A DNA stretch of 43,235 nucleotides from a virus (IMGVR_UViG_2645727669_000018); one strand, 5' to 3'; shown: positions 30,821 to 35,164, numbered from the stretch's first letter. A program made the numbers and translations. Notes: generated by a model not told the origin, from the sequence alone.

Positions 30821-31143
30821 GCTTTCAGGCCTCTCTCATGTAACCAGTGGGTTGCACGCAGCCTTGCGTTTTCCTCACCGGCAAGCAGTGAGCGGATAAT
30901 CCCGACCGCCTCGCTGTCGTCGTCCTTCACCGCGGTATGAAGCGTTATCCCCCGGGCCACGCCACGCTTTATCGTGATGACGCCTTTTTTCTCCAGTGCG
31001 CGAAGATGCTCCACCGCTGCATTCACTGAACGGTATCCCAGCATGGTTGCCACCTCCTGATTGGTTGGCGGGAAGCCACGTTCTTTCTGGTAAGAAATCA
31101 GCATATCCAGCACCTGCTGCTGGCATTGAGTTAATGTCGTCAT
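30817..31143 (-). CDS. LexA-like winged-helix DNA-binding protein
   Basis: 108 aa; N-terminal LTQCQQQVLDMLISYQKERGFPPTNQEVATMLGYRSVNAAVEHLRALEKKGVI resembles the LexA DNA-binding domain; no peptidase domain. Confidence 0.55.
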   Translation of the reverse strand: MTTLTQCQQQVLDMLISYQKERGFPPTNQEVATMLGYRSVNAAVEHLRALEKKGVITIKRGVARGITLHTAVKDDDSEAVGIIRSLLAGEENARLRATHWLHERGLKA

Positions 31144-31793
31144 GCCGCCATCTCCCTGACCAGTTTTTCTGCCTGCTGGCGAACCTGCGCCAGAAACGCC
31201 TCACCACATGCCTCAAGTTCATCGCGCCCGATGTAGCTGATTGCCGGTCCCTTCCAGGTCTTGTCGAAAACAGCAATAGCACCAGCGAAGAAAGCGCCTG
31301 TCGGCACCTGCTTCTCATCTTTCGGGATAAACCAGGCAGGCAGTTCAAAACCAATACGCCCGCGAATAAAAGCAATATGATCTGCATCTTCCGGCCACCA
31401 CACTTCGCTGGTGGCAGCTTTGATCAGGAAAACATAGCGCCCGCCTTTATCACGCATGGCACTGGCATGTTTCATGATGTAACGCATGCCGGTGATGTAT
31501 TGCCCCTCATGCTGACTGGCGCGGCTGTATGGGGGATTACCAAAGGCAGCACCTTTAAGCTCCGCAAGACGTTCTGACCAGTCATGCGCCAGCGCATTGT
31601 CTTCCGCCGTGTAATACGCGGTACATTTGGCGTTATCACCGTCAGTAAACAGATCCAGAACAAACGGGCCAAACAGAGTGTTAATTCCCCAGAAAATGTT
31701 ATCCGGCGTGCGCCACTGATCGCCCACTTCCTTCAGTTCATGGGCTGGTTTGTTCCGTAGTTCCACCAGCGCCTGGCAATATTTATTACTCAT
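31140..31793 (-). CDS. Phage-type DNA N6-adenine methyltransferase (orphan)
   Basis: NPPY catalytic motif (FGNPPYSR); 217 aa from ATG 31793, which overlaps the upstream stop (TAATG). Confidence 0.8.
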   Translation of the reverse strand: MSNKYCQALVELRNKPAHELKEVGDQWRTPDNIFWGINTLFGPFVLDLFTDGDNAKCTAYYTAEDNALAHDWSERLAELKGAAFGNPPYSRASQHEGQYITGMRYIMKHASAMRDKGGRYVFLIKAATSEVWWPEDADHIAFIRGRIGFELPAWFIPKDEKQVPTGAFFAGAIAVFDKTWKGPAISYIGRDELEACGEAFLAQVRQQAEKLVREMAA

Positions 31794-32287
31794 TAAGCCC
31801 CCACGTAATTCCCTGACAGATACCACTCATCACTCGATACAGCGCGCTTGCTGCTTTTCCGTAAACACTGCTCACGACGCGCCAGAAAATTGTTTCGTTC
31901 TGGCTGGGAGTGGCTTTCACGGAATGCCGCCATCCACACCGTTGCAGCACGACGGTATAAGCCCCTGGACTCCAGTTCTTCCGCCTGGCGGGTCAGGCAC
32001 AAAATCTCCCGCGGGTCGTTAGTGCCGACATAGAAATTGCGCACAGGTCTGGTTTCACGAACTGGTTGCGGTTCCGCCTCCTGCGCTCTCTCAGTCAGGC
32101 GCGGGAAATGTCTGCGTGTATCCCCTTCACAACGGTGAGCCACACGACCACTCTGACGTAACTTGCTTGCTGACTGCAGAACGCGCTGCCGTGAGTAACC
32201 TGCAAAAGCATCCGCAATGTCTCCGGAAGTACACCCCGGATGGGCTTCAATGTATTTCTGAACTTCATTCAAAAGACTCATGATCAC
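31793..32287 (-). CDS. Hypothetical protein (possible small regulator)
   Basis: 164 aa, Arg-rich; ATGA overlap with O-like gene stop; weak recollection of PerC/ANR-like regulators. Confidence 0.45.
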   Translation of the reverse strand: MIMSLLNEVQKYIEAHPGCTSGDIADAFAGYSRQRVLQSASKLRQSGRVAHRCEGDTRRHFPRLTERAQEAEPQPVRETRPVRNFYVGTNDPREILCLTRQAEELESRGLYRRAATVWMAAFRESHSQPERNNFLARREQCLRKSSKRAVSSDEWYLSGNYVGA

Positions 32288-33225
32288 CCCCTGAATCCTG
32301 CCGGGATCTGGCTGTAGTCCACGTTGTCGTAACTGGCTTTGAAGTACGGGTCTTCGCGTTTTTCGGTGTACGTGCTGACGGACGGCGATAAGCGCAGGGA
32401 AAGCTCATCCCATTTTTCCCGCAGCTTCGACGGGCTGAGCACGTTACGGCACCAGAACGGATCGCGGCTGACGCGGCTGTACATCTCGCAGATTTGTTTG
32501 TGAGTACGACCATCCTGCACACACATCAGGCGAATTTCGTTTGCCCAGGCTGTCCAGTTCGGTTCTTTGGGACGAACCACCTCGCCGTCACATTCGGCGG
32601 CCTGCTCGTACAGGGCGATGATTTTTTTCCAGAGCCACTGTGCGCAGGTCAAATCATCCTGCGTTCCCCACTGGCGCTTTTTAGGGCTGAATACAACCGC
32701 ATCAGGATGGCGAGTTAAAAACTCCTGTTCAGCCGTCTGCGTGTCCGGTTGCGAAGCGTCCGGACGAGAAGTTTTTTTATCTGACGGATCATGTTTTGAT
32801 TTTACTGACGGATCCCCGCCAGATTCTGACGGGTGAAAACCCGCTTTTTTGCCAGATTTCGACGCATCAAATTTTGACGGGTCAGATTTTGATGCGTCAG
32901 ATTTTGACGGGTCAGAATCTGACAATTGAGAAAATGCCGCTGCCTGAAGCTTCGCAACGTTAAGCTGATAAACATTCGACGCATTGCGGTTACCCTGGCG
33001 ACGCGCCTTACGCGTTAACCAGCCTTCTGCTTCCAGCCGTGCGATAGCCGTTCTGACGGTACTCATCCCCGCGCCAATCTGACGGGCAATGGTTTCAATT
33101 GATGGCCAGCACACACCTTCGTCATTACTGAAATCAGCCAGGCGGGCCATAATTGCCACGCTGGATAATTTCATGCCTGACGCAGCGCAACCATCCCATA
33201 CATAGCCGGTTAATTTAGTGCTCAT
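32284..33225 (-). CDS. Replication initiator (lambda O-like, N-terminal HTH)
   Basis: 313 aa; N-terminal winged-helix region, central repetitive linker (DPSKSDASKSDPSKFDASKS) encoded by tandem DNA repeats, distinct C-terminal domain; position after cro/CII-like genes. Confidence 0.7.
   Translation of the reverse strand: MSTKLTGYVWDGCAASGMKLSSVAIMARLADFSNDEGVCWPSIETIARQIGAGMSTVRTAIARLEAEGWLTRKARRQGNRNASNVYQLNVAKLQAAAFSQLSDSDPSKSDASKSDPSKFDASKSGKKAGFHPSESGGDPSVKSKHDPSDKKTSRPDASQPDTQTAEQEFLTRHPDAVVFSPKKRQWGTQDDLTCAQWLWKKIIALYEQAAECDGEVVRPKEPNWTAWANEIRLMCVQDGRTHKQICEMYSRVSRDPFWCRNVLSPSKLREKWDELSLRLSPSVSTYTEKREDPYFKASYDNVDYSQIPAGFRG
32780..32930. repeat. Iteron-like tandem repeats (candidate replication origin) inside the initiator gene
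   Basis: About 8 copies of (a)tttTGACGG(g/a)TC-like units spaced 16-18 bp, read directly from the sequence; analogous to ori-lambda iterons within O. Confidence 0.6.
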
Positions 33226-33573
33226 GACCGACCTCTATTTCCCTGAATTTACGACGAAACTGTTCGAGCGGACTGAAGCATTCATGCTCATAGCCTTCGC
33301 GGAGGTAGATAACCCGTTGTGTTTCCGGCTCCCAACGAATGACTCTGACGGGCACTCCGTAGTGATCTTTGAACCAGCGGTTAACTTGTCGCAAAGGACT
33401 GTCTCCTTCTGCCGGTTGAAATCACCCACAGCCCACTCTGCAAAGCTGTGGGTTACAATTTCCCTGTCACCTGGTACATTTACTGCATAGCAATACTCCA
33501 CCTTCGCTTTTCCACCCGGTACAGGAAGCGCAATCAGTTGCGAGCGACGGTAGTGTGTTGTTAAACTGTTCAT
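33215..33573 (-). pseudogene. Hypothetical gene with apparent frameshift
   Basis: Frame A starts ATG 33573 (ATGA-coupled to upstream gene); a second frame, open from 33421, reads ...[44 protein letters not shown]... and ends TAA 33215-33217, coupled to the O-like start; span 359 nt is not a multiple of 3. Confidence 0.4.
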
Positions 33574-34121
33574 GCGTTAGTTTCTCCACAGTCACGACAC
33601 GCCACGGCGCCCGGAGCTGCACACTCGCGGGCGTCATTACTTTCTGAAATGCAAAAAATTTTGTAGACCAGTGCTGCATGCTCCTGCAGCTTCGAAATTG
33701 AGAGGTACAGCTCGTCGTTAATTGCTGTCTTCTCATGCGGTTCCACTACACCGTCTTCAATTGCTGAACGAATCTGTTTTGAATAACTGCCGATCTGTTC
33801 AATGACCTCCAGCAGGCGTTGGTTGATATCGGCGTTGTCCACATCCTCGACATCAGGAAGAGACACAAAGACGCCATTTGCAGACTGCGCCACAGCGTCA
33901 GCAATGAAGTGAGTTCCACCAGCACGTTGCAAAATCATTGCCCATCCCAGCGGGAAAATCTGATCGCCATCTACACGAAGGCGGTTAAATAATGCGTTCT
34001 CTGTTACATCCAGCCAGTCAGCAGCTTCAGCGTACCCCCCCGGCAACGCTGCGATAGTTTTTCTGACAGCTTTCACGTACCACTCAGGCTGTTTTTCTAC
34101 TTTCCAGTGATGCTTACCCAC
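33570..34121 (-). CDS. Putative CII-like early regulatory protein
   Basis: 183 aa directly downstream of cro, overlapping it by 8 nt; weak recollection of phage CII (CP76-type) family. Confidence 0.45.
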
Positions 34122-34374
34122 GGTTCACCTCCTGTTCCTGTGGTTTAAACCCATTCTGGTTTTGGCTAGATTGAAAACGTGCCGGATAAAGAATCTGCAT
34201 TTCGCTGACTTCACCCTTAAAAAAATTGGCTAAACGTTCTGCAAGCTCGATAGATGGAATCTGCTCCAGCCTCTCAATACGACTCAACGTCGCTGGATTG
34301 ACTTGAACACCCGCAGCAACATGCTGCAAAGTGAAACCATGCGCCTTACGCACATTTCGTAATGGTGATTGCAT
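34114..34374 (-). CDS. cro: Cro-like HTH repressor
   Basis: 86 aa HTH protein (HGFTLQHVAAGVQVNPATLSRIE) divergent from cI; GGAGG SD 5 nt upstream. Confidence 0.8.
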   Translation of the reverse strand: MQSPLRNVRKAHGFTLQHVAAGVQVNPATLSRIERLEQIPSIELAERLANFFKGEVSEMQILYPARFQSSQNQNGFKPQEQEVNRG

Positions 34375-34471: not shown

Positions 34472-35164
34472 ATGAACATAGGAAACCGAGTCAGACAACT
34501 TCGCCAAGCGAAGAACATGAAAATCGCCGATCTCGCTGAAGCGATAGGAGTAGATGCGGCGAACATCTCGCGCTTAGAAACGGGTAAGCAAAAACAATTT
34601 ACCGAACAAACACTGAGTAATATTGCCAAGAGCTTAGGTGTTGATATTGCTGATCTCTTTACCTCTGCCCACAAAAGTAATACTGTATATAAAAACAGTA
34701 ATAATGAGGATGTTGCGCAGGTGAAGGATGTGTTCCGTATTGAAATGCTGGATATCAGTGCCAGTGCGGGAAATGGCCTTATCCAGGGCGGTGATGTCAT
34801 TGATGTGATTCATGCCATCGAATACAGAACTGATAATGCTGTATCAATGTTCGGCGGACGACCAGCCAATCACATCAAAGTTATCAACGTTCGTGGGGAC
34901 AGTATGTGTCCAACCATTGAGCCAGGAGATCTCATCTTCGTTGATGTCAGCATCAATCAGTTTGATGGTGATGGTATATATGTCTTTGGTTTTGATGATA
35001 AAATATACGTTAAAAGACTTCAAATGATTCCTGACAAACTGCTGGTGATTTCTGATAACCAGATTTACCGTGAATGGGGAATTACTAGCGAAAACGAACA
35101 CCGATTCATGGTCTTTGGAAAGGTCTTAATCAGTCAGTCGCAAACCCTTAAGAGACATAATTAA
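34472..35164 (+). CDS. cI: cI-type repressor (HTH plus S24 LexA-like peptidase domain)
   Basis: N-terminal HTH; C-terminal GDSMCPTIEPGDLIFVD with catalytic Ser and downstream VKRL Lys (Ser-Lys dyad). Confidence 0.9.
   Translation: MNIGNRVRQLRQAKNMKIADLAEAIGVDAANISRLETGKQKQFTEQTLSNIAKSLGVDIADLFTSAHKSNTVYKNSNNEDVAQVKDVFRIEMLDISASAGNGLIQGGDVIDVIHAIEYRTDNAVSMFGGRPANHIKVINVRGDSMCPTIEPGDLIFVDVSINQFDGDGIYVFGFDDKIYVKRLQMIPDKLLVISDNQIYREWGITSENEHRFMVFGKVLISQSQTLKRHN

Follow-up and report, generated by a model that had tools for sequence, protein, structure and literature searches.

The question raised by this locus is what function is served by an array of short repeats that lies inside a phage replication initiator gene. 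The locus belongs to a stretch of 43,235 nucleotides from a virus (IMGVR_UViG_2645727669_000018), referred to as the window, whose source, judged by its sequence, is an SfII/SfIV-type lambdoid prophage. The initiator gene (32284..33225, minus strand; 942 bp, 313 amino acids) is of the "primosomal protein" or O-like type found in Shigella phages SfII and SfIV, matching both phrog_391 and gp41 of SfIV, to which it is 99.7% identical in nucleotide sequence; identity to the SfII equivalent is 98.9%. The repeat array (32770-32925) is interpreted here as the predicted replication origin of the prophage, arranged on the lambda plan within its own initiator gene, with a probability of about 0.8. The arrangement is ordinary and known in kind, and what is new is the family: no description of an origin or of the repeats in SfII/SfIV-type phages was found in the papers examined, and the SfIV genome paper is silent on both. 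The interpretation gives a precise candidate origin for the serotype-converting phages SfII and SfIV and for a prophage family that is very common in E. coli and the Enterobacterales, in which a single 90%-identity protein cluster of this initiator has 5414 member sequences.

A preliminary description of the window had placed about eight tandem copies of a TGACGG-containing unit, spaced 16-18 bp, at 32780-32930. A repeat cluster is present there, far beyond chance. Exact TGACGG occurs on the plus strand at 32782, 32806, 32827, 32875, and 32905, five times in 129 bp, where approximately 0.07 occurrences are expected on one strand; the whole window contains 46 on both strands. Tandem Repeats Finder detected a repeat at 32853-32916 with a period of 15 and 4.3 copies (81% matches), as well as a period of 30 bp (88%), and the repeat search found five in-register copies with 15-bp spacing from 32853 to 32927, with one more at 32805. 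The spacing of 16-18 bp was not borne out, as adjacent units of the tandem part are 15 bp (exactly five codons) apart, with gaps of 33, 21, and 24 bp after them. TGACGG is clustered in the array, but it is not the conserved core: on the coding strand it reads CCGTCA, in which the CCG codon is variable, whereas TCA-AAA-TCT-GAC is constant. The core is a near-palindrome of 12 bp, GTCAGATTTTGA on the plus strand and TCAAAATCTGAC on the coding strand. With no more than two mismatches, it is found on the plus strand at six positions (32818, 32851, 32866, 32881, 32896, and 32911), and, the core being nearly palindromic, it matches the minus strand twice more. Eight of the 16 core matches in the whole window fall in the cluster, while 4.4 are expected by chance in the whole window. 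A count of about eight copies is reached only when degenerate and dispersed (D/H)(P/A)S units are included; otherwise there are five tandem units and a sixth core.

The five tandem iterons, I1 to I5 (32851..32922, minus strand), have their cores at 32911-32922, 32896-32907, 32881-32892, 32866-32877, and 32851-32862. Their coding-strand consensus, nnn TCA AAA TCT GAC, is a near-palindromic unit of 15 bp that is kept in 68 orthologues. The sixth core, I6 (TCA GAA TCT GGC; 32818..32829, minus strand), lies 33 bp downstream of I5 in the orientation of the gene, and its synonymous sites are invariant in the orthologues. I6 is part of a conserved distal block of 60 bp (32782..32841, minus strand; ggT TTT CAC CCG TCA GAA TCT GGC GGG GAT CCG TCA GTA AAA TCA AAA CAT GAT CCG TCA), which is more AT-rich and also contains an extra TCA-N5-TGA-N4-TCA unit and two GATC sites. 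In a set of 80 E. coli prophage contigs that share an identical N-terminal domain there are between 3 and 6 of the 15-bp units, giving proteins of 308, 313, 318, and 323 amino acids, and other genera have from 2 to 11. Two overlapping open reading frames, at 32796-32963 (plus strand) and 32802-32984 (minus strand), were considered as a source of constraint and rejected as artefacts, the repeat unit having no stops in those frames.

The proposal that the gene is O-like, with repeats placed as in lambda between its two domains, was supported by the protein. Its full length (residues 1-313) aligned with positions 1-298 of the 298 in the phrog_391 profile, "replication initiation O-like", with an E value of 1.6e-135. 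An AlphaFold2 model built with 30 homologues contained an N-terminal winged-helix domain (codons 1-99; 32929..33225, minus strand; Pfam HTH_36, E 4e-11) with a helix-turn-helix and a beta wing, presumed to be the iteron-binding part, for which Foldseek returned MarR-like winged-helix proteins as structural neighbours. This domain is followed by a disordered inter-domain linker (residues 103-161; 32743..32919, minus strand) with a predicted local distance difference test score below 50, a helical C-terminal domain (residues 162-278; 32377..32742, minus strand), and a disordered tail. The C-terminal domain is homologous to that of lambda O (BLASTP E 1e-25, 30% identity over 216 residues), with an alignment that includes PDA..WGT..DLT.A.W...PN...WAN.IRLM..DGR.H...C......D.FW..NVLSP.KLR.KW. 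The lambda O N-terminal family, PF04492 (Phage_rep_O), was not found in the N-terminal domain of the initiator in Pfam searches with E values up to 0.01, which returned HTH_36 and related winged-helix models; lambda O itself scores E 5.7e-36. The repeats occupy codons 102-148 of 313, between the winged-helix domain and the C-terminal domain, and the DPSKS/DASKS sequence that the array encodes corresponds to codons 103-152, in the modelled disordered segment between the two folded domains.

This location allows another explanation, in which the repeats amount to no more than a low-complexity protein linker (DPSKS) generated and homogenised by replication slippage, without a function in DNA, and the origin is elsewhere. 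The units of this subtype are all in frame, they encode a disordered linker rich in Ser, Asp, Lys, and Pro, and copy number shifts by whole units, all of which a protein-level explanation would lead one to expect. To distinguish selection on protein from selection on DNA, orthologues of the N-terminal domain were compared, with one genome per species: 76 loci with 69-100% amino-acid identity, from Citrobacter, Kosakonia, Enterobacter, Kluyvera, Buttiauxella, Yersinia, Pantoea, Erwinia, Rahnella, Providencia, Proteus, and other genera. The repeats were not absent from these orthologues, as every full-length one had an array of the same kind directly after the N-terminal domain. A position weight matrix of the units was partly circular, because the units were chosen by core similarity, and the codon-usage and aligned-block tests were relied on instead; the three tests used (codon usage, identical codons, and per-position pattern) are independent of how units are picked.

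Codon usage in the linker differed sharply from that in the rest of the same genes. In 65 orthologues, 52% of the Ser codons in the linker were TCA and 33% were TCT, compared with 11% and 9% in the N-terminal domain, and 22% and 10% in the C-terminal domain. Lys was encoded by AAA in 98% of cases in the linker versus 58-63% elsewhere in the same genes (58% in the N-terminal domain). In pairs with less than 80% identity in the N-terminal domain, the fraction of identical residues that also had the identical codon was 0.873 in the non-repeated distal block versus 0.384 in the N-terminal domain. Within the distal block, near-neutral drift was confined to the GGn-GGn spacer (identical-codon fractions 0.30 and 0.42); the third positions of CCn codons varied somewhat (0.74-0.89), the TCA, GTA, GAT, and TTT positions were conserved at or near 100%, and conservation collapsed a few codons past the block. 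Where amino acids did change, the nucleotide pattern was retained: S to P was TCA to CCA, D to V was GAC to GTC, and K to N was AAA to AAT.

Synonymous sites frozen in this way indicate selection at the level of DNA, beyond that on the protein. They are nearly frozen across genera in which the synonymous sites of the N-terminal domain are near saturation, and the single-copy distal block, where slippage can homogenise nothing, is frozen too. Slippage homogenises units within one lineage, and so cannot explain identical codons across genera or in a single-copy block, and a protein-only linker does not account for a pattern that survives changes such as TCA to CCA and GAC to GTC. The codon data essentially exclude the linker as the whole explanation. 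The array shows nucleotide-level purifying selection of a kind that fits predicted initiator-binding iterons, and is a clean example of a DNA element hidden in coding sequence that is detectable by synonymous-site conservation alone.

If the repeats are bound by the initiator, they might be expected to change when its DNA-binding domain changes, and this is what comparison with related phages suggests. In mEp460_4F5 the C-terminal half of the gene is shared at 97.4% nucleotide identity, with the match ending at window position 32780, just past the array, and the N-terminal domain is unrelated. In place of the 15-bp units there are four copies of a 23-bp repeat (L002:3034-3149), roughly CATyrGGyCAyTTTGACCyGATG on the plus strand. 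The copies are 23-24 and 46 bp apart, and therefore fall in different reading frames, which counts against a protein-only linker; on this frame evidence, mEp460_4F5 is a clean case of DNA-level repeats inside a coding region. SfV orf39 has a third type of N-terminal domain with its own repeats, and Citrobacter phage phiNP has the same N-terminal domain and array joined to a different C-terminal domain, of the Phg_2220_C type. Mosaic junctions just past the array indicate that the N-terminal domain and the array move as one module onto different C-terminal domains.

Covariation is also seen at a finer scale. Among 68 orthologues the recognition helix (STVRTAI), the wing (RRxGNRNASNVYQLN), and the consensus TCAAAATCTGAC are all nearly constant, and in the single orthologue with STVIT rather than STVRT in the recognition helix the units are TCAGAWTCCGAA. 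Two sister HTH_36 subtypes keep the 15-bp lattice, even the spacing of 15, 15, 15, and 33, with a changed unit sequence: GAC CCG TCA AAT/ACG GTT in one and CCA GAA (A/T)CT GAA CGT in the other. These comparisons provide strong support for covariation of the repeats with the initiator's own N-terminal domain and recognition helix, from which binding itself is predicted. All three HTH_36 subtypes share the repeated skeleton TCA-N5-TGA-N4, in which the half-sites are inverted copies of GTCA/TGAC. The inversion of the half-sites and the dyad symmetry of the cores suit a dimeric winged-helix binder, with two possible dyad centres, as the dimer site may be centred on either N5 or N4.

Inverted half-sites in a transcribed region could instead act in RNA, as an mRNA hairpin affecting translation or stability of the initiator message or through an antisense transcript, rather than as an origin. 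The coding-strand RNA of 32760-32935 does fold as a long hairpin (-54.5 kcal/mol, z -5.55 versus shuffled sequences), and there is a small terminator-like hairpin on the antisense strand at 32830-32843. A hairpin is the automatic outcome of tandem palindromic units, however, and any such fold would be altered by the varying number of units. It is the sequence of the half-sites that is conserved, whereas in an RNA stem pairing would be maintained by compensatory changes. A promoter scan found no promoter-like site, and an Rfam scan found no family above threshold, its sole hit being a microRNA hairpin model that scored 30.7 bits where the cut-off is 97. A function in RNA is on this evidence very improbable. 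The antisense hairpin belongs to a terminator-like element (32830-32852, plus strand) between I5 and I6, in which a small GC-rich hairpin is followed by a run of T (CGGGTGAAAACCCG CTTTTTTGCC), antisense to the initiator gene; part of this element (T TTT sAC CC) is kept in the orthologues.

An AT-rich stretch beside the array is the other component of a lambda-type origin. The least stable and most AT-rich stretch of the gene in a nearest-neighbour stability profile (32770..32813), which includes an A7 tract, is a candidate unwinding region. The least stable 30-mer (32774-32804) is 74% AT (z 1.9), and the least stable 50-mer (32763-32813) is 65% AT, compared with 81% and 75%, respectively, for the equivalents in lambda. 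The minimum is directly downstream of the tandem units in the orientation of the gene, on the same side as in lambda, and overlaps the frozen distal block. Two GATC sites in this AT-richer block (32787-32790 and 32811-32814), 24 bp apart, are invariant in approximately 65 orthologues, synonymous positions included; the window overall shows no enrichment for GATC. With a phage dam gene (31140-31826, minus strand) two genes downstream of the initiator, the invariant pair may point to control of the origin through methylation or SeqA.

The same observations could also be read as regulatory binding sites rather than an origin, serving autoregulation or titration of the initiator, or binding a CII-like, PerC-like, or LexA-like regulator, SeqA, or IHF. 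The distal block is common to three subtypes of N-terminal domain and contains the two invariant GATC sites, with dam nearby, and iterons in plasmids also act in copy-number control. For the array as a whole this is nevertheless unlikely. The tandem units covary with the N-terminal domain and recognition helix of the initiator, the array is placed as in the lambda origin, with a candidate, if modest, AT-richer block likewise downstream, SfII and SfIV have no other candidate origin or replication gene, and no DnaA box was found in the array. The distal block alone might serve in unwinding, in methylation-dependent control, or as the site of a host factor.

Several points weigh against the interpretation of the array as an origin. 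Conservation of the distal block across three subtypes of N-terminal domain means that it is not specific to one initiator, so that its role may involve a host factor or unwinding rather than binding of the initiator. All of the units of this subtype are in frame, and the tandem part, taken alone, would fit protein-level selection with slippage. Lambda iterons are spaced 20-24 bp apart, whereas the period here is only 15 bp, approximately 1.4 helical turns, and the AT-rich stretch is modest, weaker than that of lambda. Binding by the N-terminal domain, unwinding of the AT-richer block, initiation of replication at the array, and the part played by the C-terminal tail are all inferred.

In the mechanism proposed for the predicted origin, the initiator would occupy six or seven near-palindromic sites through its N-terminal winged-helix domain, probably in dimeric form. 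The sites repeat the skeleton TCA-N5-TGA-N4 every 15 bp and fall within the initiator gene itself, where the DNA codes for the disordered linker between the domains. Aided by rightward early transcription across the gene, the complex of protein and DNA formed there would melt the conserved AT-richer block beside it. Recruitment of the host DnaB-DnaC machinery would then fall to the lambda-O-like C-terminal domain and a DnaT-like C-terminal peptide, and would be direct because no phage loader exists.

The lack of a loader had been pointed out in the preliminary description, and searches of Pfam, NCBIfam, and PHROGs agreed, as the neighbouring genes included no relatives of P, DnaC, or DnaB. No helicase, loader, or primase is annotated in the complete genomes of the near-identical phages SfIV and SfII, in both of which the initiator is the only annotated replication gene. 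The domain of lambda O that engages P is the one homologous to the C-terminal domain of this initiator, which is what makes the missing loader notable. A search of plasmids for a minimal replicon based on this gene returned prophage-like or misassigned records, among them a 16-kb lambdoid fragment that belongs to another subtype and has a DnaC-like gene.

What the initiator does have is a C-terminal tail, ...NVDYSQIPAGFRG (32287..32325, minus strand), in common with the C-terminus of host DnaT. DnaT of E. coli K-12 ends in ...SEPDSQIPPGFRG (L085:2479-3018), and both motifs are at the extreme C-terminus. Eight of the last nine residues match (SQIPAGFRG in the initiator, SQIPPGFRG in K-12 DnaT; local hhalign P 1e-4). 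Across 105 DnaT orthologues the motif IPxGFRG hardly varies, and some of them extend it by the residues AK. Approximately 20 residues, (K/E)RD(I/V)NAxS(E/Q)PDxxIPxGFRG, are common to DnaT and some phage initiators, as in the pairs RERDINAISQPNDTIPPGFRG and PKRDINAFSQPDREIPQGFRG, or RCVNHISEPDTEIPPGFRG and RDVNTVSEPDSQIPPGFRG. The DnaT DNA-binding domain, PF17948, was not found in the initiator. Over their last 60 bases, dnaT and one of these phage genes share only 65% identity, so it is the protein sequence that has been conserved, and the resemblance does not stem from a recent acquisition of host DNA. Sequence 97-99% identical to the final 76 bases of the window gene is also present in phages whose initiator genes are otherwise unrelated, including SfV, mEp460, cdtI, and Stx2a/2c phages, which indicates that the tail moves as a module. 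Database names for the gene vary ("replication protein", "primosomal protein", "DNA replication protein O"), with one homologue named "Replication protein 15" by its source, and the DnaT-like tail is the likely source of names such as "primosomal protein I".

The ending of the protein and the presence of a loader gene were associated across the orthologues. In Pantoea prophages, two initiators (P0165 and P0188) with the same type of N-terminal domain, a repeat-encoded linker, and a lambda-O-like C-terminal domain, at 70-75% identity, end in a lambda-O-like tail, ..DFDNTDWIYGIEE.., and a Phage_lambda_P gene comes immediately after them, whereas the window initiator ends in ..IPAGFRG and has no P. 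A GFR(G/S/T/V) ending, sometimes with one to three more residues, was found in 43 of the 68 orthologues, none of which had P or DnaC next door; the genes that followed were mostly PerC-like or DNA methyltransferases. Conversely, an orthologue in Lonsdalea quercina (L124) is followed by a P-family gene (E 7e-62), another on a metagenome-assembled Serratia sp. contig (L130) is followed by an IstB/DnaC-like ATPase gene, and neither has a GFRG end. In both of these the orthologous module of N-terminal domain and iterons is joined to a C-terminal domain of the Phg_2220_C type, and the Serratia protein ends in ...GGTDDDFI, which recalls the acidic C-terminal tip of SSB. A further set of loci (L094, L142, L146, and similar) has neither a GFRG tail nor a loader gene next door, and instead has an extra C-terminal segment of approximately 70 amino acids (..ERDEAF...W..IW.Q..) with no Pfam match, which may be another type of adaptor.

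The same module of N-terminal domain and iterons is found, in other words, with at least three kinds of ending: the lambda-O tail with P, the DnaT-like tail with no loader, and other tails with a DnaC-like gene. This natural tail swap points to the last 10-20 residues as the predicted chooser of the helicase-loading route, and suggests a function for the conserved tail of DnaT. It is tentatively proposed that loaderless initiators recruit the host helicase-loading machinery via a DnaT-like C-terminal docking peptide, ...(K/E)RD(I/V)NAxSxPDxxIPxGFRG, shortened in this initiator to ...DYSQIPAGFRG. No role for the extreme C-terminus of DnaT was described in the DnaT literature examined, and according to a 2026 structural paper (PMC13377028) how DnaT recruits DnaB-DnaC is still unknown. 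If the proposal is correct, it would be through the DnaT tail that DnaB-DnaC, or another primosome partner, is passed to the loading site, and the phage proteins would provide a simple handle on how DnaT recruits DnaB-DnaC.

The genes around the initiator form a lambdoid early-right operon on the minus strand, from which an S24 CI-like repressor gene (34472-35164, plus strand) is divergently transcribed. The operon includes a cro-like helix-turn-helix gene (34114-34374, minus strand) and a CII/YmfL-like regulator gene (33570-34121, minus strand), which is followed by one or more small genes of no known function and then the initiator. Directly downstream of the initiator is a PerC/ANR-type regulator gene (31793-32287, minus strand), and beyond it are genes for the Dam methylase, a LexA-N-like protein, RusA, and a KilA-N protein.

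Two open reading frames just upstream of the initiator overlap each other (33215-33394 and 33235-33573, both on the minus strand). The first encodes 59 amino acids, is clearly a DUF4222 protein (E 9e-19), and overlaps the start of the initiator by 11 nucleotides. The second, in another frame, encodes 112 amino acids and is annotated as a hypothetical protein in SfIV and SfII; its first 63 amino acids form a PHROG family of their own. In RefSeq annotations of plasmids with identical DNA, the DUF4222 frame is called instead of the 112-amino-acid frame. Probably either one of the annotations is wrong or two genes have been fused by a frameshift.

Truncated or fused derivatives of the initiator gene are numerous, as in E. 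coli proteins P0045-P0055 and at loci L137, L158, L160, and L161. A fusion protein of 138 amino acids, in which residues 1-80 of the N-terminal domain are joined to RusA, is found on dozens of contigs, and in some strains the gene has been split by a rearrangement at codon 79. A search with the N-terminal domain as a protein of 98 amino acids matched mostly fragments and deletion fusions. These derivatives look like decayed prophages.

Comparison with known systems places the predicted origin closest to that of lambda. In both, the initiator gene follows cro and cII in the rightward early operon, and O, as annotated in the lambda record, has its four iterons at codons 117-145 of 299, with an AT-rich region directly after them. 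The two differ in the repeats themselves, as lambda has four 18-bp iterons at a spacing of 20-24 bp, while the array here combines five tandem 15-bp units, each with a 12-bp core, with one or two dispersed units. They also differ in the proteins: lambda O has a Phage_rep_O N-terminal domain, ends in ...TDWIYGVDL, and has the P gene downstream, whereas the window initiator has an HTH_36 domain, ends in the DnaT-like peptide, and has no P gene. Lambda also carries GTCAGAGAATTCTGGCGAATCCTCTGAC beside its AT-rich tract (L164:660-690, just right of the tract), which resembles the TCAGAATCTGGC core and may be a coincidence.

Initiator-bound repeats within the initiator's own gene are found beyond lambda, in P22 gene 18, phi80 gene 15, and SPP1 gene 38 (oriL). 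The protein families and repeat sequences of these phages are other than those described here, and they encode their own helicase or loader. The nearest parallel for a variable array is in the Stx phages. Lambdoid origins lie in the middle of O and consist of iterons and an AT-rich tract, with four iterons in lambda and six in Stx phages, and in the Stx phages 933W and P27 the extra iterons lengthen the linker of the initiator (PMC7466680). Binding and origin function have been proved by experiment in these phages, which have genuine lambda O/P systems, whereas the system described here is known from sequence and is without P; as in 933W and P27, the number of iterons varies between relatives.

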